A DNA stretch of 64,000 nucleotides from Candidatus Falkowbacteria bacterium (GCA_963747695.1 CAVVFV010000012.1:98903-162902), one strand, 5' to 3'. Shown: positions 27,315 through 64,000, counted from the first letter of the stretch. The notes: generated by a model from the sequence alone, not told the origin. Program-made: numbers and translations.

Positions 27315-27411
27315 GAATATCCAATAACCAATAAAAAATATCCAAAAAATATTTAAATATTTAAATATTTAAATATTTTTTTAAATATTGGTTATTTAAT
27401 ATTGGATATTT
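27315..27411. repeat. AT-rich low-complexity palindrome, same word set as 25793-25880
   Basis: AATATCCAATAACCAATA ... (AATATTTA)x4 ... TATTGGTTATTTAATATTGGATATT. Confidence 0.65.
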
Positions 27412-27416
27412 AAAAT

Positions 27417-28526
27417 ATGGATATAATCTCTAAACTTAAAGAATCCGGTCTCAAAGGCTGCGGCGGTGCGGCTTATCCGACGGCCGATAAATGGCAGGCG
27501 GTCAAGGATGCTTTTGGGCCGAAAAAATATGTCATCTGCAACGCCAGCGAAGGCGAGCCGATGGTTTTTAAGGACGGCTATATCTTAAAAAATTGGCCGG
27601 ATAAAGTTGTCGAAGGAATGTTGATCGCTTTGGATTTTCTAAAAGAACGTGCTGTAGAAGTTGAAGGATATATTTTTATCAATCCCGAATATGATAAAAA
27701 ATTCGGCAAATTTTTGGCGCGAGCAATTCAAAAAAGAAAAGCGCCCATTGGCATCTTTGTGAAGCCGGAAGAAGGTGGATATATTTGCGGCGAAGAAACT
27801 ACGATCTTGAATACGATCGAGGGAAATAAATCCGAACCGCGCTTGAAGCCGCCGTTCCCCACGGAAAAAGGACTTTGGGGCGAACCGACCATCATTAACA
27901 ACGTCGAAACTTTCTATCACGCGGCGAAGATTGCCGACGGGACTTATGAAACGATCCGTTTTTATAGTCTCAACGGCGATTGCGCCAATCCCGGAGTTTA
28001 TAAGATTAGCGATCACAAATCAATTCAGCACGTCATCGCCGAATCCAGAAATTGGCCCAAGTTTGATTTTTTCGTTCAAGTCGGCGGCGGTTCGGCCGGT
28101 GAGGTTTTAAATCAGCATCAGCTTGATGCTCTGCCGACCGGTGCGATGTCTATAACGCTTTATCGGACCTCGGAGTGGGGCGCGCGAGATTTATTCCGCC
28201 ATTGGATCGGATTTTTCCTGACCGAATCCTGCGGCCAATGCGTGCCTTGCCGTGAAGGAACTTATCGCTTATACGAAACTGTTAACGTCAAGAAACCAGA
28301 CTGGAAATTATTTTTTGATTTGCTCGACGATCTTTCCGAGGCGTCTTTCTGCGGCCTCGGTCTTTCGGTGCCAACAGCAATCGAATCTTATATTAAGAAT
28401 GTGTTACTGGATAAAAATGTAAACATTAAGGATTTGGACAAGGAAAAAATTTGTAAAATCCGAAGCACGAAATCCGAAATCCGAAACAAATCCAAAATTC
28501 AAAATATTAAATCCAAAACATTTTGA
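27417..28526 (+). CDS. NuoF/HydB-like NAD(P)H-binding flavoprotein subunit
   Basis: GLKGCGGAAYPTADKW, ICNASEGEPMVFKDGYIL, GGYICGEETTILNTIEG and ESCGQCVPCREGT. The last 25 or so codons are encoded by a low-complexity repeat arm. Confidence 0.85.
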   Translation: MDIISKLKESGLKGCGGAAYPTADKWQAVKDAFGPKKYVICNASEGEPMVFKDGYILKNWPDKVVEGMLIALDFLKERAVEVEGYIFINPEYDKKFGKFLARAIQKRKAPIGIFVKPEEGGYICGEETTILNTIEGNKSEPRLKPPFPTEKGLWGEPTIINNVETFYHAAKIADGTYETIRFYSLNGDCANPGVYKISDHKSIQHVIAESRNWPKFDFFVQVGGGSAGEVLNQHQLDALPTGAMSITLYRTSEWGARDLFRHWIGFFLTESCGQCVPCREGTYRLYETVNVKKPDWKLFFDLLDDLSEASFCGLGLSVPTAIESYIKNVLLDKNVNIKDLDKEKICKIRSTKSEIRNKSKIQNIKSKTF

Positions 28527-28583
28527 ATTTTGTGCTTCAGATTTTGAATTTGTTTCGGATTTAGAATTTAGGATTTCGGATTT
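28455..28583. repeat. Low-complexity inverted-repeat region built from AAATCCGAAA / TTTCGGATTT words
   Basis: The left half lies inside the 3' end of 27417..28526 and the right half fills the intergenic gap. The arms are complementary in word content (GAAGCAC/GTGCTTC, AAATCCGAAAC/GTTTCGGATTT) but the word order is shuffled. Confidence 0.55.
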
Positions 28584-44020: not shown

Positions 44021-44087
44021 TTTTCTTGCTTTGTTACATTTTTATTATAGCATATTTTTTTTCTGATGCGAATGCCGCGAATTAGTC

Positions 44088-44152
44088 GCGAATGCCGCGA
44101 AAACCGCGAATTATTTCGATAATTAATTATTCGCGGTTTTCGCGGCATTCGC
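44088..44152. repeat. Perfect 24-bp inverted repeat in the corA divergent promoter region
   Basis: GCGAATGCCGCGAAAACCGCGAAT (44088-44111) and ATTCGCGGTTTTCGCGGCATTCGC (44129-44152), with a 17-nt AT spacer. An extra half-copy GCGAATGCCGCGAA is at 44068-44081. Confidence 0.75.
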
Positions 44153-44196
44153 ATAAATTCGTGGATTAGCATTATAATTTATGCTATACTTAATGT

Positions 44197-48573: not shown

Positions 48574-50199
48574 ATGGCCACTCTTTATCGAAAATACCGT
48601 CCGCAGACTTTTAAAGAAGCGGTCGGGCAGAATCATATCAAGATCACTCTGCAAAATGAGATCGGCACGGGCAAGATCGCCCATGCCTATCTTTTTTGCG
48701 GCCCTCGAGCCGTCGGCAAAACGACTTTCGCCCGCCTGATGGCCAAGGCGGTCAATTGTCTGAACCGCAAAGAAGGGGAGTTCGAGCCGTGCGATAAATG
48801 CTCGTCATGTCTGGAAATCATAGCCGGCCGCAGTCTGGATATCGTGGAGATCGATGCCGCTTCGCATACCGGCGTGGATAATGTCCGGGAAAACATCATC
48901 GCTTCCGCCCGCGTCACGCCGACCAAATATAAATATAAAGTTTTCATCATCGATGAAGTGCACATGCTTTCCATTTCCGCTTTTAACGCTTTGTTGAAAT
49001 TGATCGAAGAGCCGCCGGCGCATGTGATTTTCATCCTTTGCACCACCGAGATCCATAAAGTTCCGGCGACGATCATTTCCCGCTGCGAGCGGTTTGATTT
49101 TCGTCGCATCAGCATCGAAGATTCGGTAAAAAAATTAACTTATATCGTCAAGGAAGAGGGGATTAAAGTCGAGCGGGAAATTTTGGAAGCGATCGCCCGC
49201 CAGGCCGAAGGCCATTTGCGCGACGCCGAAAGCTTGTTGGGGCAATTGGTTTCGATTTCCGGCAAAGAGATCACCCGCGCCGAAGCCGATCTGGTCATTC
49301 CCCGGTCCGACATCGCCGAAATCGTCAAACTTCTGGAATTCTTGATCAAGAAAGACGCGTCCGGAGCCATCGCCCTGATCAACAAGATGATTGATGACGG
49401 GGTTGATCCGGAAAAATTTGTCGGCGATTTCGTCGAAATAATGCGGAAGATTCTGCTTTCGAAGATCAATCCGAACCTGGGCGAGCGCCTCGGGCTCGAT
49501 GTGGGCGAAAGCTTTGAGATGAAGATCAATGACCTGAAAAAGAATCTGGAGAGCGGCGCGCTGATCGTCATTTTGGAAAAATTCATCAAGGCAAGAGCGG
49601 AAATGAAAAATAGTTTTATCGTACAGTTGCCGGTGGAATTGGCGATCGCCGAATTGTGCCTGGATAAAGCTCTGCAGCCGAAGGCGGCAGTTAGCGCGCC
49701 GAGCGAAGGAATTTCAAAGAATCGTCCGACCGCGGTCGCGAGCGTTGCGGAAAAGAATAATGCAGCCGTCGAAGCGCCGAATTTTTCAACCGGTTCCGTT
49801 CCCGATCGGGAGATGATTTTATCGCGCTGGAGCGAGGTTTTAGCCAAGATAAAAAAATATAATCATTCGCTATCCTTCATTTTGCATCTCTGTCAGCCGC
49901 GCGATCTGGCCGGCAACCGATTATGTCTGGCTTTCAAATATAAATTCCATAAGGATCGGATCAATGAAGCCAAGATGAAAGAAATCGTCCAGAATGTTTT
50001 GCGCGAAGTTTATGGTACGCCGATGACGATCGAAGCGGTGATTGATGAAAATATGGAAGTCGAAGGAAACGCCACCAAAGGCGTTACGGCTGATGCCGAA
50101 GTTGAAGTGGAAGTGCCGGAAGACGAATCAGCGCAACCGGCCGGCAAAGATATGATGTCCGATCTCCTTAAAACTTTCGGCGGAAAAATAGTAGGATAA
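48574..50199 (+). CDS. dnaX: DNA polymerase III subunit gamma/tau
   Basis: YRPQTFKEAVGQ, Walker A GPRAVGKTT, the zinc module CxxCxxC (EPCDKCSSC), and DEVHMLS. Confidence 0.9.
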   Translation: MATLYRKYRPQTFKEAVGQNHIKITLQNEIGTGKIAHAYLFCGPRAVGKTTFARLMAKAVNCLNRKEGEFEPCDKCSSCLEIIAGRSLDIVEIDAASHTGVDNVRENIIASARVTPTKYKYKVFIIDEVHMLSISAFNALLKLIEEPPAHVIFILCTTEIHKVPATIISRCERFDFRRISIEDSVKKLTYIVKEEGIKVEREILEAIARQAEGHLRDAESLLGQLVSISGKEITRAEADLVIPRSDIAEIVKLLEFLIKKDASGAIALINKMIDDGVDPEKFVGDFVEIMRKILLSKINPNLGERLGLDVGESFEMKINDLKKNLESGALIVILEKFIKARAEMKNSFIVQLPVELAIAELCLDKALQPKAAVSAPSEGISKNRPTAVASVAEKNNAAVEAPNFSTGSVPDREMILSRWSEVLAKIKKYNHSLSFILHLCQPRDLAGNRLCLAFKYKFHKDRINEAKMKEIVQNVLREVYGTPMTIEAVIDENMEVEGNATKGVTADAEVEVEVPEDESAQPAGKDMMSDLLKTFGGKIVG

Positions 50200-50335
50200 T
50201 TATAAATTATAAGTGATAAATTATAAATAAATTTATTGACATAATCACTGAAATGATTTAACATTTTTTTGCGCCCCATCAGAGGTGCTTTTATTAAAAT
50301 TTATAATTTATAATCAATAATTTGTAATTGATTTT

Positions 50336-50406
50336 TGGGAGATCGTCCAACGGTAGGACGTCGCGCTCTGGACGCGGTAATCATGGTTCGAATCCATGTC
50401 TCCCAG
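50336..50406 (+). tRNA. tRNA-Gln (anticodon CTG)
   Basis: Hand-folded cloverleaf. The acceptor stem is TGGGAGA/TCTCCCA (U1-A72). The D-stem is GTCC/GGAC and the anticodon stem is TCGCG/CGCGG. The anticodon loop is CT-CTG-GA (anticodon at 50368-50370). The T-arm is CATGG-TTCGAAT-CCATG and the discriminator is G. CCA is not encoded. Confidence 0.9.
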
Positions 50407-51895
50407 CACTAATCATACTAAGTCCTTTTTCAGGAAAAATTTTTAACGCTTCGCGAAGCGAAGCGTAAGGTTTGATGGGCACAAATTTGAGTTTTTGATT
50501 TATCAAAAACAAGTTCGAGCCGAAGATTTTTTGGAGATGTGCCTTTTTGGCACATAAATCGTCATTGGTTGCTGAAAGAGCAAGCAATGACGCATCTTTT
50601 ATCCATTCCCGCATCGGTTCGAGCCAACTTCCGGCGTTCTGTTCCAAACGGGCTATTTGCTCCTCAAGTGACCTCTTTTCGGAGATGACAGCCTTCCGGC
50701 GGTTTAGGTAGTCTTCCCGCTCGATATCCTGGGCTACATAGAGGTCGGTGAGCCGCTCGAGGTTGCGGGAAAGGCCTTGTGCCTTCTCCTGCAAGCCCTG
50801 GACGAACGTCGCCGTCTTCTGCTTAGATTCTTGCTCATCTTCATTTGTTCTCCTCGTGAGCTCATTAGCTATCTCTTCCGGCATCGAAAATTCAGATAAT
50901 AGATTTGATAGCTCGGAAACTAAAATTTCTTCTCTGACATACGATTGAGAACATTTGATCGTCGTTGATTTCTTGGTACAGCGATAATAGGTATGAGATT
51001 TTTGGACTTCGGCGGTGATCATTTTTCCGCACTCGCCGCAATGCAATAAACCGCATAAAGGTTTGGGGTCATTTCCGGTTCTCTGCGGATGGCCTCGCTC
51101 AATCAAAACATTTTGGACTTTATCCCATAACCGCTTCTCAATGAGCGGTTTATGCTTGCCCTCATAAATATCGCCGTTATATCGGAATACGCCGTAATAG
51201 AAAGGATTGGAGAGAATAAATTTAGCTCTGTCCTTATGTAGCGGTTTATCGCCCGTGCTTTTAACACCTTGTTTAAAAAGAAAGTTAGAAATATCCTCGA
51301 GGCGATAATTGCCCTTGGAGTAGAGCTCAAAAGCGGCGCGGATGGTTTTAGACTTCCGTCGGTCAACGACAATCGTTTTTGCCCGCACATCGTTTAGATA
51401 GCCGGTCGGAGCCGTGCCGGGAAAGTGTCCTAGTCGCGCCTTCTGCCTAAGTCCGCGGCTCGTATTGGAGCTCAAGTCGCGAATGAATTGGTTGGCCATC
51501 CCCAATTCAACGGCCATTAGTAGAACGTTGTCGTTAGGGCGATAGCTTTTGTCCGGCATTAGGATATGCTCGATTATGCTCTGCTGGATCATCCAGCTTA
51601 TTTGTCCGCCGTCCACCGGATTGCGCGCCAAACGGTCAAGTTTCCAGCAGACTATCCCTTTGGCTTCGCCCTTGTTAATCCGTTTCAGCATATCGTTAAA
51701 GACCGGACGGCCCGGAGCTTTGGCCGATTGTTTTTCCACGAATTCGCGGACGATCTCGATATGTTCGTCCTTGGCCAGCTCGCGCAGTTCGACGAGCTGA
51801 GCTTCGATGGACAAAACTTGTTTGTCCTCGACATCGGTCGATTTGCGGGCGTAAAGAAAATAGTTATTTACCGAAGGTATATTGTTTGTTATCAT
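50381..51895 (-). CDS. Large serine recombinase (resolvase domain, recombinase domain, zinc ribbon, coiled coil)
   Basis: N-terminal YARKSTDVEDKQVLSIEAQ (catalytic Ser context) and WKLDRLARN. The zinc ribbon is CGECGKMITAEV...YYRC, followed by a long C-terminal coiled coil. The last 26 nt overlap tRNA-Gln on the opposite strand. Confidence 0.9.
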   Translation of the reverse strand: MITNNIPSVNNYFLYARKSTDVEDKQVLSIEAQLVELRELAKDEHIEIVREFVEKQSAKAPGRPVFNDMLKRINKGEAKGIVCWKLDRLARNPVDGGQISWMIQQSIIEHILMPDKSYRPNDNVLLMAVELGMANQFIRDLSSNTSRGLRQKARLGHFPGTAPTGYLNDVRAKTIVVDRRKSKTIRAAFELYSKGNYRLEDISNFLFKQGVKSTGDKPLHKDRAKFILSNPFYYGVFRYNGDIYEGKHKPLIEKRLWDKVQNVLIERGHPQRTGNDPKPLCGLLHCGECGKMITAEVQKSHTYYRCTKKSTTIKCSQSYVREEILVSELSNLLSEFSMPEEIANELTRRTNEDEQESKQKTATFVQGLQEKAQGLSRNLERLTDLYVAQDIEREDYLNRRKAVISEKRSLEEQIARLEQNAGSWLEPMREWIKDASLLALSATNDDLCAKKAHLQKIFGSNLFLINQKLKFVPIKPYASLREALKIFPEKGLSMISAGRHGFEP

Positions 51896-51946
51896 AATAA
51901 TGAAAGCATTTCTTATTATTTTTTATATACTTATGATAGCATTATT

Positions 51947-52162
51947 ATGAAGAACGTGCAAAGCCAATCAAAACTTGGAAATAATATCAAAAAGTATCGA
52001 GCCAAACTCGGCTTGACGCAGGAAGAATTAGTAAAAAAATCGGATGTAAAATATACGACGCTTTCCAAAATAGAAAGTGGTGTTATAAAAATGCCAAGCG
52101 TTCAGATAGCGGCAAAAATAGCAAAAGCCCTCCTTGTTTCCATTGAAGATTTAATGAAATAA
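51947..52162 (+). CDS. XRE-family helix-turn-helix transcriptional regulator
   Basis: LGNNIKKYRAKLGLTQEELVKKSDVKYTTLSKIESG is a canonical HTH_3 motif. The gene is divergent from the recombinase, with a 51-bp spacer. Confidence 0.8.
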   Translation: MKNVQSQSKLGNNIKKYRAKLGLTQEELVKKSDVKYTTLSKIESGVIKMPSVQIAAKIAKALLVSIEDLMK

Positions 52163-52782
52163 TAATTTATGAAAAAAACAAGAAAAAAAATTCTCGTGAT
52201 GATTTTTTTAGTATTTTATTTTGCGTTTTCTGCTGCAACGGCCTTGGCGGATGGCGCGTTAGTGGAATACGATCCTTATAATGCAGTAAATTATGATCTG
52301 AAAGCGGAAAATAGCCAGCAGGCGGTAATTAGCTATGAAAAAGGCGTGCAGAAAATGGTTTTGGCCGTTGACTTCGCGAGCCACTTCGAATAGAAATGAC
52401 GTTTGGATTTTTCCGGTTCCCGCCAGTGCCGATAAAATTAAAATGGATATTGTTTCCAACATTCCTTCTCTGGCCGGCCAAAATCTTTCCGATTCGGTTT
52501 CCGCTAATCTTTACTATGTTAAGAAAGATATTGAATCGACTCAGGTCTACCCATTAGTTTATCGGATTATTTCCAGAATTATAACCTTAAACAGTAATCA
52601 GTCATCAGACGAGTTAGGGTTGGGGGCTGTCGATAACGGAACATCAGCCAATCCTGTGCCAGATGTTATTGTCCAGAGCCATTTAGAAAAGGGCGGCATG
52701 GTTTCCGAAATTATTTCCGCCAAGACGGCCGATGGTCTGGCGAAGTATTTTAAAGACAAGGGGTTAAATTTTGACAATAAAT

Positions 52783-53835
52783 TGTTACAATTGCAGCAAT
52801 TAGGGTTACCTTTCGGGTTTCGTTCCAGTGTAAAATGGTGGCAGGATTATTTAACTAATAATTTTGCCCAACCATATGCGCCGAAACACCCAAGAGGCTC
52901 TAATTGCCATGAAAAAAGAAATTTTAGACTCTTGCATTGCCAAAACCATGAAATGCAAGGACGGAGCTAAGCTGCTCGATTTTCACCCGAAATACTTTTC
53001 CCGTCTGAAAAAAGAATATTTGAAATACGGCGTAGCCGCTCTGATTCCCAAACCGCCGGGTCCCAAAAATGGGTTCATCGCTAAAAATCGGACGTCGGAA
53101 ACACTGGAAAATCTGGTCTGTGAATTGGCGCGGAATAATACTTCTTCCGGTCCGACCGAATTGGCCGATCAACTGAAAGATAATTACGGATTTGAAATTA
53201 ATCAATCAACTATTTTTAGAATTCTGCGGCGGAAGAAAATCAGATATTGCCGCGATTACCAGCCGATCATCAAACAAAAACCGCAATTATACTGCCTGGA
53301 AACGCCAGGCGAAGAATTACAGCTGGATGCCTGCCATCCGTTCGGACGCGGCCGGCAACTGGTCTGTTTCGACGCCATTGATGATTGTTCCCGTTATGTC
53401 TGCGCCAAATTGTATGACCGAGAAAATGCCGCCAACGCCATCGAATTCATTAAATATTTAATTCAACACGCCCCATTCACGATTAAAAGGATTAGAATTG
53501 ATAATCGCAGCAAGAACAAAATTCGCGAATTCTGTGAATCGATTGGCATCGAAGTTATCGTCAACGACGCCCACGAGCCGAAACAGAATGGCAAGATTGA
53601 ACGATTTCATCGCACTATTAAACGCTCATTTTTTTGGAAATATTGCGGCTTCTACGACGACCAAGAACTATTGGATTATCGCTTGCAACAATGGCTGGCT
53701 TATTACAACGAGAAACGCCGTCATGGCGGCTATGGCATGAACCGCTTAACGCCAATCCAGAAAATCGCGGCAGCTTTGTTTAATTCTTTAAATATCATTC
53801 CTCGCAAAAAGGTAACCTTGACTATGCAATCGTAC
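52783..53835 (+). mobile_element. IS481-like insertion sequence
   Basis: About 1.05 kb with a single HTH plus DDE (rve) ORF. The imperfect terminal IRs are TGTTACAATTGCAG... and ...(rc) TGTACGATTGCAT, both followed by GGTTACCTTT. It is flanked by a 16-17-bp direct repeat AAATTTTGACAATAAAT (52766-52782 and 53836-53852). Confidence 0.75.
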
Positions 53836-53844
53836 AAATTTTGA
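52864..53844 (+). CDS. IS481-family DDE transposase (integrase-core/rve domain)
   Basis: An N-terminal HTH and the DDE contexts LQLDACH, IRIDNRS and PKQNGKIERFHRTIK. The likely true start is ATG 52876 or 52909. Confidence 0.85.
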   Translation: MPNHMRRNTQEALIAMKKEILDSCIAKTMKCKDGAKLLDFHPKYFSRLKKEYLKYGVAALIPKPPGPKNGFIAKNRTSETLENLVCELARNNTSSGPTELADQLKDNYGFEINQSTIFRILRRKKIRYCRDYQPIIKQKPQLYCLETPGEELQLDACHPFGRGRQLVCFDAIDDCSRYVCAKLYDRENAANAIEFIKYLIQHAPFTIKRIRIDNRSKNKIREFCESIGIEVIVNDAHEPKQNGKIERFHRTIKRSFFWKYCGFYDDQELLDYRLQQWLAYYNEKRRHGGYGMNRLTPIQKIAAALFNSLNIIPRKKVTLTMQSYKF

Positions 53845-55170
53845 CAATAAATCAATTCCTGCCCTGCAAAAGTATTTTGGCCGCGACTATTCCTTTGTCG
53901 CTTCTTGGATAAACACTGGCGCTAATGTTTCGTCAACTGCTGCTGCGATTACCGCCAGCTCGCCCGTGCAAAACAACCCGAATTTGGTGACGGCCGATTT
54001 CATTGATAAGGCTTTTTCTTTTTACTATGGTCAGAGGGGAAGATTCCCAAAGTTTGCAGAGCTTCGTGATCAGATCCTGGATAAGCAACAGAGCGAACCT
54101 CTCCCGCCAGGCCAATTTCATAATGATGCTTATTTTCAGGCACGGCAGGAGGCAATTGATCAAGCGTTGGCTGATGATATAAATCATGATAATACTATAG
54201 TAGCCGATCAGCTCGGCGGACAAAAAATTACCGTACCGACGCAAAAAATGATCGATGATTATGTTAATGGAGAAAGCATTAGCGTCCTCCCTCAAGGTGG
54301 TCAAAGCACCTTTAATGGCCGCGGAATTTATCTTTCTTTTCCGACCGATAAAATTTATTTTCCATTAATGTTGACCAGCGTTTATGGAGATAAAATAATT
54401 CCCGCTGAAATAAGAGTAATCTCGCCGGTCGCTCCGAAAATTTTCGGCAATATCCGCATGTTTGCTAAAACTTCCTACTATTCTAATGCTTCTTTGGTTT
54501 TTCGGGATGCGGCGTTGCAGGATTTTTATTCCGGCAGTAAAACCGATTTTATTTACACAAAGATCGACATCAACGCGCCAGCTAAAAATTTAACTAATGA
54601 TCTTTGGATCAGTCCCAATCCTTCATTCCAATATAATTTAATTTCCCTGTTTAATAATTCCTTGTTCTCTTTCTTTATTATTTTAGTGTTATCTTCTTTG
54701 CTGTCAGGAATCATGGCTGGCTGGTTGCTCTCCAGGTTTGCGTGGAAAAGAACGTTGCGTTTTGCCCTAATCGGTTTTTTTAATGTTTTTAGTTTGATTG
54801 GCTTAATTATCGCCGCCAAGTTTCTATTTGTCGATTTTAAGAATGATGGCTATCCTCAATGGGCTTTTTTGCCCCGCGATTTCCGGAGATGGCTTTTCGT
54901 TCCGTTTTTTTCCGCATTATTTATGGGCTGTACTTGGCTAATCATTGAGCTTATAAAAATAATTATTTAATAAAAAATTATATCATTCTGTAATGAATAA
55001 AATTATGAAAAATTTAGTAATAGAGCAGTTTGAACAAGGAATTATAGAACAGGTATGCAGTATCATGGAAGGCGGAGAAAAGGCTTTTAATTAGAGAAAG
55101 AGTAAATATTAGATTTCATTGCGACATTCAACGATGAAATAACATAAAGTTTTTTATCAGAAAGATCATC

Positions 55171-55347
55171 CTCCAAAAAATCTTCGGCTCGAACTTGTTT
55201 TTGATAAATCAAAAACTAAAATTTGTGCCCATCAAACCTTACGCTTCGCTTCGCGAAGCGTTAAAAATTTTTCCTGAAAAAGGGCTTAGTATTATCTGTG
55301 CTCATCTCTATGACCTCGCTCGAAGGTATTTTTTAGATAATTCTTGA
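55171..55347 (+). pseudogene. Detached inverted copy of the recombinase 3' end, carrying the presumed native C-terminus
   Basis: It encodes LQKIFGSNLFLINQKLKFVPIKPYASLREALKIFPEKGLSIICAHLYDLARRYFLDNS*. The first 115 nt or so are about 98% identical to the reverse complement of 50408-50536. No recombinase-like sequence lies upstream of 55171. Confidence 0.7.
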
Positions 55348-55737
55348 CCCAAAACATGGCCGTCTAACCCCCTCCGGCTGCGGCCATTTTGCCCTGTATG
55401 CGCTCAAGGCCAAGGAGGGCCAACTAGTTGAACAGCTATATGAACAGCTGTATGAACGACTAGTTGAACCCGGGTTCATATAGCAGACACTGTTTTAAGA
55501 AGTTATTTTAGCCAAATTCTAATTTTCAAAAATGAGTGACTATTACTCCGACAACGGAATCAACTGAACGACAAATATATATTATTACTACACTAAGATA
55601 TGACGACAAACTACTAATTACAATTACGACTTAAACCAATATTATATTAAATACCAATATTAATTACTGATATTATTTAATTTCAGATACTTCTTTCCAA
55701 CTACTGGCCAAAACCAAGAAAAAAAATGGGGAATGAG
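55171..55737. repeat. Inverted repeat, left copy (recombinase tail, attP-like core and 438-bp arm)
   Basis: 55171-55299 is the reverse complement of 50408-50536. 55300-55737 is the reverse complement of 61613-62048, with scattered mismatches. It contains the TGAAC array at 55429-55483. Confidence 0.85.
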
Positions 55738-56089
55738 GGGGGAACCCATCGCCCCAACATAAGTCGGGTGATGGGTTGGACATATTTTAAATTATAAATA
55801 CTCACGTATAAAAAAATCCATTTTAATTTTCAGCCTTTGCCTATTGGCTAGTATTTTTCTCAGATCGCTGAATTCGAATGTCACTTTCGCCGTAGAGACT
55901 ATTTTTATCGGATGACCTGAGTGGCTGGTCATTGTTAGTCAAAGAGGCTAGCAATAGTATATCCTCATTTTTGTATGAGAAGATACTATTGCACTTGCGC
56001 TTATTCATAAATATTCACGATGATTTTAGTTGATTTCATCTAATATTAGTAATTTTTACAAATTTCAAGCAATTATTATGTAATAGGAC

Positions 56090-56119
56090 TTGACAAAATA
56101 TAAATACACGATGTATTAT
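56090..56119 (+). promoter_or_regulatory. Sigma70-like promoter for the first cassette operon
   Basis: TTGACA (56090-95), an 18-nt spacer and TATTAT (56114-19), lying 37 nt upstream of ATG 56156. Confidence 0.4.
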
Positions 56120-56155
56120 GTAAATAGACAATACACTTACATAAAATTTAAAAAT

Positions 56156-56371
56156 ATGAGTGAAACAAGATATGAAAGATTTAAAAGGCTAGCAGAGGCC
56201 AGGACGAATATAATTATACAGAGAATTAAAATCCTCGGTAATTGCTCGAATAGGAGTTCATATGATTATACTTCCGAAGATATCGATAAAATATTTAATG
56301 CCATTTCGAAGTATTTGAAAGATACAAGGGCAAAGTTTTCATTTCCTGGAGAACGGAAGTTTAAGTTATGA
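56156..56371 (+). CDS. Small (71-aa) helical protein, first gene of the cassette
   Basis: Start placed at MSETRYERFKRLAEARTN because the longer ORF start overlaps the promoter-like motif. The stop overlaps the next start (ATGA), suggesting translational coupling. Confidence 0.55.
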   Translation: MSETRYERFKRLAEARTNIIIQRIKILGNCSNRSSYDYTSEDIDKIFNAISKYLKDTRAKFSFPGERKFKL

Positions 56372-57831
56372 TTATGAATAATTACGACTCAGGAATCGAA
56401 GAGGTTATCGGTTCTGTTATATCTTTTTTTAATGTAGATAGAGATTTGTTGTTTGGAAATTCCAGAAAAGCAGAAATTGTAGAGGCCAGACATGTATTAG
56501 CCTACTGTTTAAGAAATAAATTTAGACTATCATTCCCAGCAATAGGAGAAATCTTTAACAGGGATCACACCTCAATTATGCATGCATGCGAAAACGCTTG
56601 CATAATTATTGAACGAAATATAAAGTTAAAAGTTTTTATTGATAATTTGATAAATTCAGGGGACAGTGAATATAAAGATATTAGTGAAGTAGAGGGTGAA
56701 GATGTTGGTAAGGTGGTAAGCGAAGATATAAAAACAACTAATAACCCGGAAGAGTTGAAGAAATATTTAACATTTAAACGTGAGTTGGAAGATAAAGAGC
56801 ATGAAAGGAATATGACGGAACTAAGGAAGAACAGAGAGGGTAAAATTTCAAATGCAAAAGCCGAATATGCAAAAGCAGTGATCAATGCTAAAAATGAATA
56901 TGAAAACAACTCTATTAAATTAATAGAAGGAAGAGCTAAAAATATAAGAGAACATAGAAGTGCGATGTTTTGGCTCAAGATTGGTAGGTATTCAGAGGCG
57001 AATGAGTATCTGAGTCCCAAAAAAGAACTTTTAGAAAATAACGATTTCAAAAAGGATATTGTAAATTTCTTGCCTAAATTTAAGACCGAAGTTAAAGAGC
57101 TTGTTTTTCCGATCGAATTTAATAAAGAGTATCTTAGAAATTGCTTTGCAGACTTGGATGACAGATCGAAAAATATTCTTATTAAAAGATATGGTTTTGA
57201 TGATGAAAAAACATCAACACTGGAAGAGATTGCGGTAATTGAAAAAATATCGAGGGAAAGAGTGCGCCAAATTTTGCAAACAGGTATAAATAAAATTTAT
57301 TTTAATAATTGTGGCGGGTTGAGACAGGTTGTTAATTCGGTTGCGGGGAAAATATTAAAAGAAGATTTAGTATTTATTGATAAGTGCTTGAATGAATTTT
57401 TTATATTTAATAAGGAAGATGAGAGTCTGCTCAGAAGACTGATTTTAGTGATAATGCTATCCGTAAAATGGATTAAGGAATTTGATTTTTCTGGCTATAA
57501 ATTTTTCATTAATTCATCTAACGAAAAGAAAGTAATTGAACAAATTGATCATATTAAATTGCTAATCGGAAAGATTGAAGCGGCGATGCCTGATATGATA
57601 TTAGATCGTTGGCAATATGTTCTAAATAATTTAAAGTTGTACGAATTCTTTCAAGATAAAAAACATTTATTGGATGATGCATTTTTAAGAGCCTGCTATG
57701 ATAATTTTTTGTTTGAAAGCGAGATAGTTGTTTATAAAACAGAGGTTCTTAAAAAGTATAAGTCATATAACGATGCTGATCAGGAGCAGGTTGAAGGTGT
57801 CCCCAACGAATATAATGTTTTTTTCGAGTAG
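56368..57831 (+). CDS. Dual-HTH protein: DnaA-domain-IV-like HTH, coiled coil, sigma70-region-4-like HTH, unknown C-terminal domain
   Basis: The N-terminus LLFGNSRKAEIVEARHVLAYCLRNKFRLSFPAIGEIFNRDHTSIMHACEN matches the DnaA C-terminal DNA-binding signature (R..R...AMYL.R.....S...IG..F..RDHTTV.HA). Residues 270-300 or so, LIKRYGFDDEKTSTLEEIAVIEKISRERVRQILQTGINKI, match sigma70 region 4.2. Confidence 0.7.
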   Translation: MIMNNYDSGIEEVIGSVISFFNVDRDLLFGNSRKAEIVEARHVLAYCLRNKFRLSFPAIGEIFNRDHTSIMHACENACIIIERNIKLKVFIDNLINSGDSEYKDISEVEGEDVGKVVSEDIKTTNNPEELKKYLTFKRELEDKEHERNMTELRKNREGKISNAKAEYAKAVINAKNEYENNSIKLIEGRAKNIREHRSAMFWLKIGRYSEANEYLSPKKELLENNDFKKDIVNFLPKFKTEVKELVFPIEFNKEYLRNCFADLDDRSKNILIKRYGFDDEKTSTLEEIAVIEKISRERVRQILQTGINKIYFNNCGGLRQVVNSVAGKILKEDLVFIDKCLNEFFIFNKEDESLLRRLILVIMLSVKWIKEFDFSGYKFFINSSNEKKVIEQIDHIKLLIGKIEAAMPDMILDRWQYVLNNLKLYEFFQDKKHLLDDAFLRACYDNFLFESEIVVYKTEVLKKYKSYNDADQEQVEGVPNEYNVFFE

Positions 57832-57854
57832 TATTAATAATTTAACCTAACCAT

Positions 57855-59357
57855 ATGGGAAAAACAGTTTACAATATAACACCAGACATTTCTCTGATGC
57901 CCAAACTCGGAAAATCTGGCTATTCTTCTCCGCAGGCAATCGCTGAGTTGGTGGACAATTCTATTGATGCCAGAATAGAGGGCAAAGTGTTAAACGTGGT
58001 AATTAAGATAGAGAAAAATGTAATCAGTATAGCTGATAATGGTTCTGGAATGGATGGAACACAATTAGCTGATGCTATGACACTTGCACACTCAAATAAG
58101 GAGAATAAATTGGGCGAGTTTGGCCTTGGCTTAAAAACCGCATGTAATAGTTTGGGGGAGAAATTTGAAATTATAACCTCTCCGGCAAACGATAGCAAAC
58201 AGTATAGGTTTGTATACGATCAAAAGGAGTGGATGGGTAAACAAAAGTGGGAGATCGATATAGAGTCCTTAAAGGCGGAAAGCGATATGCATTTTACCGT
58301 AATTAAAATTGAGAACTTGTCTAAAAATATTCCTGGACTGCCGGATGTTTTAAAAAGAGATATGGAAAGAAGATTCGCCCCTTTTATAGAAAAAGGAGAG
58401 GTTACTATTAAAGTGAACGGGAAAGAGTGCAAGCCTGGCAAGCACGATTTGATTGAAGGATCCAGAAAAGAATTTAACCTCGATGTTGTAAGTGGAAAAT
58501 TTAAAGGTGAAAAAATATATGGCTGGTATGGGTTGCTTAAAGAAGGCTCAAATAAGGGTCTTTATGGTTTTCATACTTATCGAAGAGGGAGAATGATTAC
58601 GACTTATGACAAGATGGTTATCGGTGAACATCCTACAATTTCAAGAATTATAGGTGAGATAAACATGGATTTTGTCTCCGTGACTCACAATAAGAAAGAT
58701 TTTATAAGAGAAAGTGATGAGTTCGCAATGGCAGAGGAATTATTAAAAGAAGAGTTAAAGAATATTCTAAAAGAGGCTAAAAAGAAGTCTGGCCAAGACA
58801 AGATTACGAAAAACGTAATGAACGATTTAGACGTTTGGAAAGAAAAAATCAGTAAGGCGGTAATGGAATCACAGGATTTAAAATGTTATACGTCTCAAGT
58901 TGATATTAAAACGGGAATGGTCAAGGATGATGACGGTAAGGACGAGGAGGTTCTTGGTGAAAAAAGAGAAAGCAAGAAGGGTGGACACGGAACCGTAAAA
59001 CCAAAATCGACAGATGCGGTAAGGGTGCCAAAAAAGGAGAATGAAAATATAAAAAAGATAATTAAGGTAAAGGGTAAAAAATTTGAATTCGATCACGAGT
59101 TCTCTTCTCTGGGTCAAGATTCGGCATGGAAACAATATGAGTTTGACAAGGAAAAAAGAAAAATTGTTGTTTATACAAATATTGATTTTCCAGCATTCTC
59201 AACAACAAAAGACACGGCCTTCTACGCCGTTTTGCATATTGCAGAGTCAATTGCAGAGATCATGGTTACTGAGGTTGGGGAAGAGATAGGTAATTTGCAA
59301 GAGATAAAAGAAATTATTTTAAAAACAGCGTCAATTCTTAAAAACCAAATTGATTAA
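57855..59357 (+). CDS. GHKL-superfamily (MORC/HATPase_c_3-type) ATPase
   Basis: The Bergerat-fold motifs are the N box AIAELVDNSIDA, the G1 box ISIADNGSGMD and the G2 box LGEFGLGLKTA. These are followed by a YRRGRMI segment, a Lys/Glu-rich linker and a C-terminal globular domain. Confidence 0.8.
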   Translation: MGKTVYNITPDISLMPKLGKSGYSSPQAIAELVDNSIDARIEGKVLNVVIKIEKNVISIADNGSGMDGTQLADAMTLAHSNKENKLGEFGLGLKTACNSLGEKFEIITSPANDSKQYRFVYDQKEWMGKQKWEIDIESLKAESDMHFTVIKIENLSKNIPGLPDVLKRDMERRFAPFIEKGEVTIKVNGKECKPGKHDLIEGSRKEFNLDVVSGKFKGEKIYGWYGLLKEGSNKGLYGFHTYRRGRMITTYDKMVIGEHPTISRIIGEINMDFVSVTHNKKDFIRESDEFAMAEELLKEELKNILKEAKKKSGQDKITKNVMNDLDVWKEKISKAVMESQDLKCYTSQVDIKTGMVKDDDGKDEEVLGEKRESKKGGHGTVKPKSTDAVRVPKKENENIKKIIKVKGKKFEFDHEFSSLGQDSAWKQYEFDKEKRKIVVYTNIDFPAFSTTKDTAFYAVLHIAESIAEIMVTEVGEEIGNLQEIKEIILKTASILKNQID

Positions 59358-59733
59358 TTAAACTCAGGAGTACGAAGAAAATTTTGGTTTTATGGACAAA
59401 ATAGAAGTCTGTGAAAAAATAAAAAAAGGTACACGTAAAATTACTGTGATTTTCGAGCACTGTTTAGTTAGTCTGGGATAGGTGTTAAAGTTAACTCGTC
59501 GAGACTTTTATTAACGGGTAATTTAGTTAATGTGAAAGGGTAATTTATTTGATTGATAACTCTGTGACGTAGGGATCCACACTCGATTCCCCGGCAAATT
59601 AGCTGGAATTATATACTAGAAAGGAATAATGGTAGGATTGCTAGATTCAGAAAAATTAGTTCCCAATAGCTCCGCAGCGGCTTTGTTACATAAACTTATA
59701 ACTTGACGTTTACAATAATAAAAATATTAAAAA

Positions 59734-60933
59734 ATGGATACTAAAACTTTTTCAGAGTTATTAAAAGACGATGTTATCGAACAAATACAAAAAGTAGATT
59801 TAAAATCTAAAGATTGGGACGCGTGGTTTTTAAAATGGAAAGATCCAAGCACAAGAACTCAAATTATTTGGATTCTTAGGGATTTAGCAGAGAAGAAAGA
59901 ATATGTAGATAAAATCGTTGCAATAGCGGACATGTATTCGAAAGACCCTAATCCTGATGGAGATTTTGACGACTTAAATAAAAAAATAGAGGCCGGAGAA
60001 GATATCCGTTCTATATATACAGTCAGAGGAACTTTGCCGTGGCTTTTGCAAACATTAATAGCCACTTTTAAAACAGAGTATTACCCAGATATTTTAAAAA
60101 TAACAGAAAGATTAATTGAAGATCAGGTATATTATGTTAGGCAGCAGGCTACCGTTCCTCTTTCTCTTTTTGTAGCCAACCTTCGTGCCAAAAAAAACGT
60201 TGATGGAACAGATTTTAATTTTACTGATAAAGACAAGAGCAGTGCATATAGTCTCTCGTTTAAGATGCTTAGAGAGAATTGCAATCTCCCGCGAGTATTA
60301 GAATACGTGTCTAATGTATTTGATAAGTTAAGAAATATAACAGCGGAAGAGGCAAAAGAAGTGCTAACAACTTTTTGCTATAATGAAAAAAAAATTAATC
60401 CTGAATACCTAACTAGCCACGTAGTTCCTCTAGTAATTTTCTTCGCAGAGTTTAGAAAAAAAAACGAAGCAGGTTTTGATAATTATTGGTTCCAGGTTTT
60501 TTTAGAAAATTTTATTAAAGATGCCAAAGATTCTTGCCTAAGAAGTACATTAATCTGGCATATGTGGCGGGTGATTGAAGAAGATGCGTCTAATTATCAA
60601 TTGGTTAAAAAGTATATACCATTGCTTTTTGAAAATATTTCCGATCATGAGCCTGTGGGGCAGATGGAATTTTTAGTAAATGAAGTTTTAAAAGCTGATT
60701 CCAAAGACGGTATTGAACTATATATAACATTCCTTAATTATTTAGATAAAATGAATTTTTCTAGTTCTTTTAAGCTTTGGCTTACCCAAACAGAGGAAAC
60801 ATTGGAACGTATCAAAAAGATAGATTCTTCAAAAGTATTAGAGATTTTACCCTTACTGAAAGGATTACGTTTAAAAGGTTGTTATGTCGGCGATGAAAAA
60901 ACAATTTTTCCCGAGGAATCGGCTGATAAATGA
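59734..60933 (+). CDS. All-alpha HEAT/ARM-like repeat protein (function unknown)
   Basis: A 399-aa protein with a helical-repeat appearance (e.g. VRGTLPWLLQTLIATF, YYVRQQATVPLSLFVANL) and no catalytic motif recognised. It is preceded by a 376-bp non-coding spacer. Confidence 0.6.
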   Translation: MDTKTFSELLKDDVIEQIQKVDLKSKDWDAWFLKWKDPSTRTQIIWILRDLAEKKEYVDKIVAIADMYSKDPNPDGDFDDLNKKIEAGEDIRSIYTVRGTLPWLLQTLIATFKTEYYPDILKITERLIEDQVYYVRQQATVPLSLFVANLRAKKNVDGTDFNFTDKDKSSAYSLSFKMLRENCNLPRVLEYVSNVFDKLRNITAEEAKEVLTTFCYNEKKINPEYLTSHVVPLVIFFAEFRKKNEAGFDNYWFQVFLENFIKDAKDSCLRSTLIWHMWRVIEEDASNYQLVKKYIPLLFENISDHEPVGQMEFLVNEVLKADSKDGIELYITFLNYLDKMNFSSSFKLWLTQTEETLERIKKIDSSKVLEILPLLKGLRLKGCYVGDEKTIFPEESADK

Positions 60934-60937
60934 TTTT

Positions 60938-61435
60938 ATGAATGAACTGGATAAGTTAAAGACAGAGATTAAAAATGATTTGATGAATATTAAAGAATTT
61001 TTTGAGGCATCTCTTAATTCATATGTTTCAAGTGCTACAAGTGGTAATACCGGAACTCAACCAGTCGCAAATGATCCGATTCAAGGAAGAAAGAAACATT
61101 TTTTAGAAAACTATATGTTAGTTTTTCCCAGCCTTCTTTATAGGACCATCCTTAAATTAGGAAAAAGAATAGAGAAAATTGATCAGGGGTTGTTCACTAT
61201 AAATTTTAAATACACCAATCCAAGAAATAATTTGTGTTATATAGGTCCAAAAGGCAGAGAAGTCGAAGAGATAAGGGGATTGAGAAATTATTTTTTTCAT
61301 GGCGACGATATGCCTAATAAGGGTTTTGCTGATGCGTTTAAAAATTACCCACCAGACAAACCGATTGAACTTGAAGGAAAGGATGTGACGAGGCTTATAA
61401 AAAATTGTGAAGATGCTATAAACAAAATTATTTAA
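60938..61435 (+). CDS. Minimal HEPN-like protein (putative RNase effector)
   Basis: Start placed at ATG 60938, 4 nt after the upstream stop. R-x4-H motif with the typical polar second residue: EEIRGLRNYFFHGDD (AGA codon at 61283). The predicted helical protein is 165 aa, consistent with a minimal HEPN domain. Confidence 0.55.
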   Translation: MNELDKLKTEIKNDLMNIKEFFEASLNSYVSSATSGNTGTQPVANDPIQGRKKHFLENYMLVFPSLLYRTILKLGKRIEKIDQGLFTINFKYTNPRNNLCYIGPKGREVEEIRGLRNYFFHGDDMPNKGFADAFKNYPPDKPIELEGKDVTRLIKNCEDAINKII

Positions 61436-61612
61436 TTGAAATGGGTCTGACCTCTGCTTGATGAAGCAAAGGAATTGAACAGCTAGCCATATAAATAACC
61501 AAAAAACAGCTATATCCTAGCCGCTTATCAACCCCCGTCGTCAATCATCCCGTTAGCCCGTTAATAACCCCGTAATTGTTTTGCCCATCCTGTTTTCACC
61601 CAGTCTTTTCCT

Positions 61613-62048
61613 CTCATTCCCCATTTTTTTTCTTGGTTTTGGCCAGTAGTTGGAAAGAAGTATCTGAAATTAAAGAATATCAGTAATTAGTATTGGTAGT
61701 TAATATAATAATTGGTTTAAGTCTTAATTATAATTAGTAGTTTGTCGTAGTATCTTAGTGTAGTAATAATATATATTTGTCGTTCAGTTGATTCCGTTGT
61801 CGGAGTAATAGTCACTCATTTTTAAAATTATATTTGGCTAAAATAACTTCTAAAAACAGTGTCTGCTATATGAACCCGGGTTCAACTAGTCGTTCATACA
61901 GCTGTTCATATAGTTGTTCAACTAGTTGGCCATCCTTGGCCTTGAGCGCATACAGGGCAAAAGGCCGCAGCCGAAGGGGGTAGACCGGCCATGTTTTGGG
62001 TCAAGAATTATCTAAAAAATACCTTCGAGCGAGGTCATAGAGATGAGC
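61613..62048. repeat. Inverted repeat, right copy (its outer end is attR)
   Basis: The reverse complement of 55300-55737. It carries the TGAAC array at 61867-61927 and ends ...GGTCATAGAGATGAGC at the tRNA terminator hairpin. Confidence 0.85.
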
Positions 62049-62098
62049 TTGTGAAATAAAAATAAGGCGCGCCTAGCGCCTTATTTTTATTTCACAAG
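62048..62098 (+). terminator. Perfect 23-bp-stem hairpin; presumed native terminator of tRNA-Gln (B' arm of attB)
   Basis: CTTGTGAAATAAAAATAAGGCGC-GCCTA-GCGCCTTATTTTTATTTCACAAG. Confidence 0.7.
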
Positions 62099-62255
62099 AC
62101 GAAATGCTGTTTGACAAAATGTTATATTGTTGGTAATATAAGATTTGTTTTCTATTTCAAAATAATTGTGCTTCATATCGGAAATTTCGCCAGAACCCGC
62201 CGGGGTTACGCCGAATAGCTATTATTTTAAATTAATCACTATTTATATAAAGAAT

Positions 62256-64000
62256 ATGAAAAAAATTTTATTTTTTTTCGCAATCGCGGCGGCTTCTTTG
62301 TTTTTTGGCAATTCAGTAAAAGCCGACGGAATTTATTATCATCAAATAGATCTGCAACCAGGTTGGAATGTTATTTCTGTGCCGCGCGTTGTCCAGAGTC
62401 ATCAATTTTCGGCCGCTGAAACTTTAAGCAATTTTGATATTTACGTGCTGGATAATACTAAGGCTTCCGGATGGGCGACGATGGCTGATTTGGGCCAGAC
62501 CGAATTTACGCCGCTTTACGGATATTTTATAAATAATAAAACCGGTGTTGAACAAACTTTGACGGTCAATTATAAACAATTTACGCAAAATGATAATCCT
62601 GGCAACAGATTATTTGTTAGAAATTTAACTCCTGGCTGGAATGTAATCGGCGTTGCCGATCCCGCTGATGCTCTTCCTCAGAAAGATAGCAATTCGGTCG
62701 ACACTAATAACATTCAACCTATTTTAGGATCTTTTGCCAATAATATCGATTCGATTTTGGATTTTACCGCCGATCAGTCCGATAGATCATCGGTAAAGAT
62801 AGGGGATAATTGGGGTTACGCAGTGAATGGTAATTTCAGCAGCCTTAATGATTTTAGGGAAACGAAAGCCTACGGGGTTTATGTAACCAATGCCGGAACC
62901 TATCACGGGTATCAAAATAATGACCCGATACTTATTTACGATCCGGTTAGCCTGAATTTGAAACCGGTAACCGAAACAGTGAATGGTAGCGCCAGCGGCG
63001 TTTCCTTACTTGATTTTTTTGTTAATACCGGGTATCCGATAAATTTTTATTTAAATAATGTTGACGTTAAACTTTTATCGGAAGGGATAGACGGCTCTAA
63101 TATTTCCAATTTGAGATTGAGTTGTAATAATAACAATGTTGCTGTTGTTTCTGCGCCGCTTCTCGGTGATAATTATATAACCGCCTCTTCTTCGTTGCCG
63201 GCGGGTACTTCTGAGTGCCAGGTTCTTATTGATATCAATAATGTCAATCAGACCGGCTACATTCAGGTTTCTATAAATGGTTTAGACAATCAAGCCAATT
63301 GGGGGGTTCTGGGGAACAAGATTGGTAATCAAAATATCCCCGGTGAGATAGATGGATATTCGATTTATTTTGCCCCTGCTTATGTCGTCAATCAGGCGGT
63401 TATCTCCGCTAACTCCACCGCCACTTTGACTGGATCACCTAACGACATCTACAATATCGGCGATGAAGATGCGGCGTTGGCCAGCTTCAACATCACTGAC
63501 GCTGCCGGTGTTGGCAGCTCTTTAAATAGATATTTGGTTTTGAAGTCTGTCACATTAAAGAATAACGGTAATGCTGAATTAGCCAATGTTATTAGCAATC
63601 TTGCCCTTGAAGAATCTGGCGTCAAAGTTTCCGCATTCGCCACTGTAAATGGTAAATATGTTACCTTCATTTTAGCTAACGGCGGTTTGACCATCGACAA
63701 GGGCGATGATATCACCCTGAAAGTTACCGGTGATATCATTACTGAAGATTCCAGCAATAACCAGATTCAATTCATGTTGAACAACAGTTCAGATATGGAT
63801 ATTATGGATATTGAAGAAAGTGGCAACGACTATGCTGCTACCGTTTCAACCAATGTGAATGACGCCAGTTTTAATTCCGCTAATGCCACTTTTGATTATA
63901 CTATTTTAAACGCCGGAAATGTTACAATCTCTAAGGACGCCACCAGCCCGACTCAGAAGAGCTATGTCAAGAACACCAAGGACGTTGTGGCTTTGTTAGT
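62256..64000 (+). CDS. Large secreted surface protein, N-terminal part (3' end outside the window)
   Basis: My own translation from ATG 62256 is open to the window end. It is absent from the ORF track, presumably because there is no stop. The signal peptide is MKKILFFFAIAAASLFFGNSVKA, and the rest is Asn/Ser/Thr-rich and beta-like. Confidence 0.75.
   Translation, partial: MKKILFFFAIAAASLFFGNSVKADGIYYHQIDLQPGWNVISVPRVVQSHQFSAAETLSNFDIYVLDNTKASGWATMADLGQTEFTPLYGYFINNKTGVEQTLTVNYKQFTQNDNPGNRLFVRNLTPGWNVIGVADPADALPQKDSNSVDTNNIQPILGSFANNIDSILDFTADQSDRSSVKIGDNWGYAVNGNFSSLNDFRETKAYGVYVTNAGTYHGYQNNDPILIYDPVSLNLKPVTETVNGSASGVSLLDFFVNTGYPINFYLNNVDVKLLSEGIDGSNISNLRLSCNNNNVAVVSAPLLGDNYITASSSLPAGTSECQVLIDINNVNQTGYIQVSINGLDNQANWGVLGNKIGNQNIPGEIDGYSIYFAPAYVVNQAVISANSTATLTGSPNDIYNIGDEDAALASFNITDAAGVGSSLNRYLVLKSVTLKNNGNAELANVISNLALEESGVKVSAFATVNGKYVTFILANGGLTIDKGDDITLKVTGDIITEDSSNNQIQFMLNNSSDMDIMDIEESGNDYAATVSTNVNDASFNSANATFDYTILNAGNVTISKDATSPTQKSYVKNTKDVVALL

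Follow-up and report, generated by a model that had tools for sequence, protein, structure and literature searches.

The 64,000-nucleotide stretch of Candidatus Falkowbacteria DNA analyzed here (the window) carries an island integrated at a tRNA-Gln(CTG) gene located at 50336-50407 on the positive strand, identified by ARAGORN and by Rfam (tRNA, 60.4 bits), the 3′ end of which constitutes the B half of the integration site (attL). The attL crossover is placed, without strand, at 50405-50407, where MAFFT alignment and the sequence itself identify the trinucleotide AGC in attL, in attR and also in the inner site. The integrated form of a large serine recombinase (LSR) gene (50381-51895, negative strand, 504 aa) encodes the Pfam domains Resolvase, Recombinase and Zn_ribbon_recom (PF00239, PF07508 and PF13408); its open reading frame runs across the junction to a stop codon within the tRNA-Gln gene, which encodes the final 8-9 residues of the integrated recombinase (..AGRHGFEP). 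An AlphaFold model of P0203, a 93%-identical relative, contains helices at 332-379 and 385-412, and Foldseek matched this model to the SPbeta, Bxb1, PhiC31 and LI integrases (9y66, 9dxh, 9iu2, 9rah and 4kis) with E = 1e-17 to 1e-10. Based on the domain set and the coiled-coil helices and fold matches of the model, the window recombinase is a member of the LSR family. The right end of the island is at 62048, and the B′ side of the target (62050-62100, positive strand) directly following it contains a hairpin, GTGAAATAAAAATAAGGCGCGCC/GGCGCCTTATTTTTATTTCAC, that is probably the tRNA terminator.

Beside the recombinase gene, an XRE-type HTH regulator (Pfam HTH_3) is encoded at 51944-52162 on the positive strand, and several relatives (family 2: 10 loci) likewise have a small HTH gene adjoining that of the recombinase. 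No candidate for a recombination directionality factor emerged, and giving that role to the neighbouring HTH gene would be no more than a guess. The recombinase module also contains an IS481-like DDE transposase gene (Pfam rve, rve_3 and HTH_32; 52864-53844, positive strand) that is absent from the close relatives L095, L112, L116 and L089, and the distance between the inner, spare copy of the gene end and the gene is 3.3 kb in the window versus 0.3-1.4 kb in these four. The cargo (55741-61609, positive strand) is of low GC content, 0.33 versus 0.45, and consists of genes at 56090-56371, 56368-57831 (a DnaA_C and Sigma70_r4 protein by Pfam), 57855-59357 (a MORC-like GHKL ATPase), 59734-60933 and 60884-61435. 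PADLOC returned a single weak MzaB match for the window cargo, and an Rfam scan of 50000-62500 returned nothing besides the tRNA. Self-comparison of the window identified further palindromes and inverted repeats of 90-130 nt, 75-84% identical, at 25793-25879 / 27316-27410, 28456-28583 and 44066-44172.

Inverted repeats and the inner attP-like junction

Two pairs of inverted repeats were delimited by self-comparison. The first is formed by the tail arm T (50405-50536, negative strand), which comprises the final ~44 recombinase codons and doubles as the P′ arm of attP, and by its inverted copy, the spare arm T′ (55171-55302, positive strand); over these 132 nt, ungapped comparison of T with the reverse complement of T′ gives 5 mismatches (96% identity) at 50410, 50411, 50414, 50423 and 50489. 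The second pairs the inner X′ arm (55300-55740, positive strand, 441 nt) with the outer X arm (61610-62048, negative strand, 439 nt), which terminates at attR; this pair appears as four abutting blocks in the repeat self-comparison, is supported by MAFFT, and shows 95.7% identity with 13 substitutions and 6 gap columns in global alignment. At lengths of 132 and 440 nt and 95-96% identity, the repeats are far beyond chance. Both pairs had been described in the initial annotation and are confirmed by MAFFT and ungapped comparison, however the mismatches of the first pair, counted there as four near the crossover and two farther away, number four within 19 nt of the crossover and a single distal one. 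The abrupt start of recombinase homology near 55171 was likewise reproduced, as a tblastn search of the recombinase against the whole window found residues 444-497 at 55141-55302 only, with nothing else recombinase-like.

The two pairs meet at 55300-55302, such that the inner copy forms one uninterrupted X′.Y′ junction reading, in reverse complement, GAGATGAGC-AC-AGATAATACTAAG, an unbroken attP-like junction; the outer copies of the attP halves are split between the two island ends in the MAFFT alignment. Translation of the spare identified an open frame at 55171-55347 (positive strand), LQKIFG...GLSIICAHLYDLARRYFLDNS*, corresponding to the native C-terminal end of the recombinase with its stop codon and reading AHLYDLARRYFLDNS* in the window. 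The X′ arm contains a P half-site (TCGAAG at +18), the C-terminal codons and iteron-like repeats. From reconstruction, joining of the outer X arm to T upon excision would rebuild attP and a 511-aa recombinase. The iteron-like direct repeats consist of GTTGAAC/ATGAAC units and are present in both X arms, at 55429-55480 and 61870-61925; similar repeats occur just past the recombinase stop codon in L083, L085, L119 and L001, and the tRNA-Asn subfamily carries iteron-like units of TTTACCCCT(T/G)CAT.

The putative attP is situated within the final ~15 codons of the recombinase gene. The crossover falls within coding sequence and the integrated and free forms encode different C-termini, ending ..SAGRHGFEP in the integrated form and ..SAHLYDLARRYFLDNS in the 511-aa form rebuilt with the outer arm. 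Because attP lies inside the gene, integration at a tRNA 3′ end swaps ~15 conserved residues (LYDxARTYF) for tRNA-encoded ones. Past the crossover, the inner copy reads ..LY(D/E)x(A/V)R(T)YFxxN* in the recombinase frame across loci, with LYDxARTYF as its core, and between loci the codons of this C-terminal piece (C′) show synonymous differences (CGA/CGC/CGT/AAG and ACC/ACT/ACG), a sign of selection on the peptide. P0203, a native-ended protein of the same 90% cluster as the window recombinase, ends ..GLSMIGAHLYDLARRYFLDNS, and its AlphaFold model predicts the native C-terminal peptide as a final helix (residues 484-501) with block-mean pLDDT of 80-87 over 481-503 (68 for 481-490). Among the 120 best homologues, ~110 terminate at a contig end or in residues that are apparently tRNA-encoded, many carrying ..GFEP or ..GLEP, to which the T-loop corresponds in reverse complement, and strict native-motif ends are found in 3, with close variants in ~5 more. 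A ~11-nt insertion is present in the distal spare of ~12 loci and C′ is out of frame in L089, indicating that the spare is not everywhere a clean coding exon.

The two types of half-site differ in the position of a TCGAAC motif, which by hand count lies at +13/+14 from the crossover in the tRNA versus +17/+18 in C′ (window, L029, L043 and L055), approximately 4 nt farther out in the inner copy; across related loci the motif has a positional peak at +15 to +29. In the LI integrase model, it is such a motif offset that separates B-type from P-type half-sites. A T-loop-like motif, GGCTCGAAC, occurs in the recombinase gene at 50513-50521 (negative strand, codons G-S-N) and again at 50617-50625 (negative strand, codons W-L-E-P), with a further copy within the spare arm at 55186-55194 (positive strand). 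It is fixed at synonymous sites twice in the gene, with TCG used in 73/74 cases compared to an 18% background. Extended to GGCTCGAAC(C), it is the reverse complement of the tRNA T-stem and T-loop; the in-gene copies are ~105 nt apart in two reading frames and a third copy lies in the C-terminal piece in the third frame (A-R-T). The DNA motif seems to determine the amino acids. In at least nine loci the spare arm starts exactly at the G-S-N copy of the motif. The idea that the inner boundary of the spare is a site-specific junction at fixed TCGAAC spacing was rejected, the spacing ranging from 0 to ~60 nt, and accessory motif arrays sought beyond -114 and +17 gave no consistent peaks.

The spare gene end in related islands

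Recombinase homologues numbered 5884 at E ≤ 1e-20. A single scan of species-representative genomes returned 80 related loci, the recombinases of which share 37-76% identity with that of the window. By title, nearly all are Patescibacteria (candidate phyla radiation) or unclassified-bacterium MAGs, and 3 are titled Gammaproteobacteria or Phycisphaerae. Per-locus self-comparison showed that ~47 of the 80 loci (~47 of the ~55 that were assessable) carry the recombinase tail a second time, inverted and upstream of the gene, most loci without this copy being truncated by a contig end near the gene. The copy covers the final 60-186 nt of the gene with 84-100% identity and lies 0.06-10 kb away from it; the spare arms of the family amount to ~35-55 codons, and a full second recombinase gene was present at the spare position in none of the related loci. 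Spares are found in long-read complete chromosomes (L003, OY970354.1; L019, OY970382.1; L032, OY970216.1), and T′ of the window is matched at 97-99% identity by three independently assembled loci, L087, L089 and L116 (98-99% in the latter two); T′ and X′ together recur at 93% in L112, and X′ at 92-93% in L095 and L112 beside differing neighbouring genes. This family-wide recurrence, the long-read chromosomes and the independent assemblies exclude a mis-join and make simple decay of a second gene very unlikely. The initial annotation had read the inner copy as an intact attP-like site instead of a decayed second gene and had proposed a comparison of related islands for conservation of the inverted duplication; this reading is upheld.

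The same annotation had placed two attP-like sites on either side of the cargo. This holds for the window and for L003, L018, L023 and L057, in all of which hybrid junctions are present at both ends; the latter four repeat the window's layout, their second inverted pair adjoining the first and enclosing a block of cargo. It does not hold for most relatives, which lack the outer 438-bp arm copy and a recognisable attR. L001 carries the second inverted pair only, and most relatives have one C-terminal piece with no outer X arm within 2-9 kb. Searches of the relatives for an outer C or P-type half-site by blastn-short and peptide motif recovered only the five loci with X repeats, and the design of a search for the outer half-site by core, spacer and motif proved too strict even for known positives and would be non-specific if relaxed. 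The integration route and far boundary of the one-piece relatives are left unexplained. At the near boundary, the recombinase gene and a convergent tRNA gene meet at their 3′ ends in most loci (57/80), with fourteen tRNA identities among them, and the tail repeat terminates exactly at the tRNA end in the alignment of related loci. No terminal overlaps indicative of circular contigs were found, nor any contigs with the exact protein of the window recombinase, P0001 or P0204.

Four arrangements of the two arms occur, so that arms and flanks are seen among relatives in every combination. In the majority, represented by 27 clear and ~40 likely cases and by the window itself, the spare is on C′ and the tail is on a tRNA. 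The converse, with the spare on the tRNA, the tail on C and the recombinase complete, is found in L085 and L086, from two samples, which are ordered tRNA-Asn, spare arm, native-ended recombinase and cargo. Compared with L060, these two loci have a recombinase gene that is 89% identical at the DNA level and an identical tRNA-Asn sequence, with the flanks outside the module swapped and inverted, so that L085/L086 and L060 are inversion isomers. The two permuted states foreseen in the initial annotation, one of them with a native C-terminus, are thus both represented among relatives (L085/L086 versus L060; P0203). The examples with a tRNA-joined spare and complete recombinase come from short-read assemblies only, in which arms at least as long as the k-mer could be mis-threaded. 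Both arms are on tRNAs in L090, which is ordered tRNA-Gln(TTG), T′, recombinase with T, and tRNA-Gln(CTG), with both junctions precise; its arms are 8% diverged, which makes mis-threading by the assembler unlikely, and the precise spare-tRNA junction points to site-specific use of the spare as well. A second such case may be L116, its spare being joined to tRNA-Asn-like sequence of which only 19 nt are visible before the contig end. In L033, both arms have P-type (native-type) flanks, that of the tail being diverged from the usual peptide.

Mixing of arms and flanks is also apparent among close relatives. Native-ended proteins share 90% clusters with tRNA-joined ones, several different tRNAs being represented, and the cluster of the window includes P0203 with a native end, P0205/L087 on tRNA-Asn, and P0202 and P0206 on tRNA-Gln. 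The core-proximal segment of the arm has two allelic forms, SMIG/S-type and SIIC-type, and among close relatives either form is seen with a C-type flank and with a tRNA flank. L011, L005 and L020 differ from each other, yet in every one of them the two arms match exactly over the ~100 nt closest to the crossover, which implies continuing gene conversion. As far as sequence comparison can establish, the inner copy is a complete P-type site together with a stored native gene end, conserved across the family in most loci.

Interpretation and comparison with known systems

We consider it probable that the segment is the second of two inverted attP regions bearing a spare gene end, giving rise to two isomers, and that this is a trait of a large family of Patescibacteria LSR islands at tRNA genes. 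A flip of the recombinase module between its two arms, either by homologous recombination between them or by the recombinase using the spare attP, would rejoin the gene to its native end. The island would then alternate between a common isomer with a truncated recombinase, the form of the window, and a rare isomer with the full-length enzyme. With the 438-bp X arms of the window, the excised circle would gain two full attP regions and a flip of the 5.9-kb cargo would be permitted. Alternation between truncated and complete forms is an inference, with no read-level evidence of flipping in one population, and homologous recombination between the arms is a plausible route for the flip that cannot be separated from a site-specific one by sequence alone. 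Counting against this explanation, most relatives have a single C-terminal piece without an outer X arm, the spare is not in every locus a clean coding exon, and canonical LSRs do not, to our knowledge, recombine attL with attP. A more elaborate form can be entertained only tentatively, in which the arrangement would be a programmed switch: integration would remove the C-terminal helix and lock the island, inversion of the module would re-arm the LSR, and the second attP would dock a second tRNA and rearrange the chromosome, with the enzyme reading the tRNA T-loop motif, copies of which would be hard-wired in its own gene.

The spare could instead be mainly a second functional attP whose coding content is incidental, docking at a second tRNA or permitting integration in either permutation and so producing chromosomal inversions or split islands. 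The precise junction with tRNA-Gln(TTG) in L090, the tRNA-Asn-like junction at the contig end of L116, the start of the spare at the TCGAAC motif in any codon phase in at least nine loci, the frame-breaking distal insertion in ~12 spares, and the presence of SMIG and SIIC arm types on both C-type and tRNA flanks in close relatives all fit this reading, which overlaps largely with the preferred one. It does not account for conservation of the C′ peptide at the protein level with synonymous change, or for arm identity over ~100 nt when a half-site needs only ~25, and we judge it unlikely as the main explanation. It is improbable that the inverted attP is only a footprint of cargo capture or module shuffling, left at the join of cargo and recombinase and without present function. 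The differing GC content of the cargo (0.33 versus 0.45) would fit such a history, as would the different cargo of close relatives sharing T′/X′, the placement of cargo on opposite sides of the spare (L011, L012 and L022 versus L010 and L063) and a conserved ~60-nt box at module edges; a functionless scar, however, would not stay 89-100% identical to the tail, nor would its C-terminal frame remain open across dozens of islands with recombinases sharing only 50-65% identity, and in the minimal islands L042, L043, L059 and L064 the spare lies beside the gene with no obvious adjacent defence cargo.

Very little credence is given to a device like that of the yeast 2-micron plasmid, in which the excised circle would raise its copy number by inverting as it replicates. 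Inverted repeats bearing recombination sites would divide such a circle into two arcs, the X arms contain iteron-like repeats, and the cargo encodes a DnaA_C-domain protein, but no replication initiator or origin was identified, the second X arm is missing in most relatives and no circular contigs were found; we also know of no canonical LSR that recombines two attP sites. The slimmest prospect is that the inner copy is a decayed second element in opposite orientation, or a mis-join, for which solitary C-terminal recombinase fragments beside tRNAs in L070, L079 and L080 and the many short-read contigs that end at arms could be cited. This is largely refuted by the same truncated extent and orientation throughout the family, the absence from all related loci of a full second gene there, the occurrence of the spare in long-read complete chromosomes and at least four independent assemblies of the window's element type, and the 4-5% difference between inner and outer copies, which cannot be one collapsed sequence. 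An orientation-free integration through a palindromic crossover dinucleotide was also considered, and was dropped when the predicted tRNA-rc(X) junction was not seen in the loci examined.

LSR integrases are treated as one-attP/one-attB systems and are widely used as genome-engineering tools. The window LSR has the same catalytic, recombinase and zinc-ribbon domains and coiled coil as PhiC31, Bxb1, A118/LI and SPbeta SprA, and shares with these systems a short common core and a motif that lies farther out in the P than in the B half-site. Unlike them, the window family places attP within the recombinase's own final codons, targets the T-arm and acceptor end of many tRNAs, conserves a second inverted attP with a spare gene end, and has a T-loop-like motif fixed at synonymous sites in the gene. 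An attP inside the integrase gene, with a changed enzyme encoded by the provirus, is a feature of Myxococcus phage Mx8 (intP/intX) and of SSV1-type archaeal integrases, which resemble the window island in that integration alters or splits the integrase coding sequence; these are tyrosine recombinases, however, and we know of no element of this type with an inverted spare copy of the lost end. In the integration-dependent immunity of mycobacteriophages, reportedly described by Broussard et al. in 2013, attP likewise lies in the 3′ end of a gene, and integration is said to remove a C-terminal peptide and so switch the behaviour of the protein. That gene encodes a repressor with a degradation tag, whereas here the recombinase itself is affected, by loss of a peptide that does not resemble ssrA, and a spare end is retained.

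Invertible systems offer a further likeness. The yeast 2-micron plasmid carries FLP/FRT within 599-bp inverted repeats and is, as the excised island would be, a circle that long inverted repeats bearing the recombination sites split into two arcs, with two isomers; it differs in using a tyrosine recombinase on identical sites for replicative amplification and in not being integrative. The window does not meet the criteria for such an element, its enzyme being a serine recombinase and no circular contig or origin having been identified. Inversion exchanges alternative C-terminal gene ends in the Hin/Gin/Cin/Pin segments and in shufflons, however the former use small serine invertases with an enhancer and Fis, the latter use a tyrosine recombinase, and the targets of both are surface or tail-fibre genes and not the recombinase itself. 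The Hin/Gin criteria (~190 aa, a C-terminal HTH and ~26-bp sites) are not met by a protein of 504-511 aa with LSR domains and arms of 100-170 nt. According to the available portion of a preprint on the tycheposons of Prochlorococcus, these are likewise site-specific islands at tRNA genes with modular cargo, of which 27 of 937 carry an LSR and most have tyrosine recombinases; a dual inverted attP is not described in that portion (bioRxiv 10.1101/2020.12.28.424599). The arrangement in the window thus resembles attP-in-integrase elements, C-terminal switches, the 2-micron circle and invertible cassettes, and is not a member of any of them.

Nothing was found in the full-text literature, the coverage of which was incomplete, that describes an LSR element as having a pair of inverted attP regions or a spare gene end, and the arrangement is provisionally regarded as undescribed, in keeping with the initial statement that no such serine-recombinase element was known. 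If the preferred reading of two inverted attP regions and two isomers is true, the combination of an attP in the gene, a conserved inverted spare and several arm-flank arrangements would represent a new layer of self-regulation in serine-integrase biology. Spare arms would explain why contigs of Patescibacteria islands break at recombinase genes, and the family would point to enzymes recognising the near-universal tRNA T-loop, which matters for predicting and re-targeting integration sites.

Cargo modules and neighbouring elements

The cargo of related islands is mostly of defence type and includes type I, type III and Eco57I-like restriction-modification, KAP NTPase, AAA_15/OLD-like, GmrSD, PDDEXK and MORC-like genes, and these islands would be a main vehicle of defence genes such as restriction-modification, MORC-like, KAP, OLD-like and GmrSD in the tiny genomes of Patescibacteria. 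A metagenome pattern scan returned 28 stretches, 3 of them related (L095, L112 and L116) and none with the window's cargo, so that cargo orientation could not be compared. A promoter-like site of the cargo's own lies at 56090-56119, and no consequence of cargo inversion for expression can therefore be predicted. TrwB/VirD4-like genes adjoin the spare in L011, L012 and L032, and metabolic-looking genes adjoin it in the minimal loci L064 and L043. The conserved ~60-nt box, CGCGCA(A/C)GGG.GG.T.GGGGCAAG.., adjoins the spare at its inner limit and recurs at cargo-block edges; it was located in L021 and L032, in L060 (6337-6429 and 1480-1543), L085 (166-258 and 7198-7264), L090 (1844-1890) and L001 (4340-4400), and could be a shared promoter/operator or a module junction.

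At the tRNA side of the islands, the sequence adjoining the tail in L019, L022 and L060 resembles tRNA-Asn in its 3′ half only, the similarity ending at the anticodon loop (..CCTTACACG); ARAGORN called no tRNA there, and the tRNA may be truncated, split or interrupted by an intron. L064 (188-1514 and 4721-6395), L059 (77-1588 and 5967-7643), L008, L023 and L066 each contain a pair of recombinase islands inserted at adjacent tRNA genes, and the order of the tRNA cluster differs between L064 and L044, as would fit recombinase-driven rearrangement. The same island backbone as in the window (94% over 2.4 kb) is joined to tRNA-Asn in L087 (ERZ25039473 contig_37291), where the neighbouring genes encode sigma-70, PAS, BON, PRC, TspO, response regulator and P-type ATPase proteins, a host context unlike that of the window that suggests recent transfer and more than one tRNA target per enzyme type. 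In L090, the region 1287-1731 contains a GIY-YIG endonuclease open reading frame (1319-1657) with the complete tRNA-Gln(TTG) gene on one side and a duplicate of the initial 18 nt of tRNA-Gln on the other, which looks like a homing-endonuclease insertion at a tRNA gene, and a 58-nt inverted repeat encloses a GIY-YIG gene of L089 (9792-10199).
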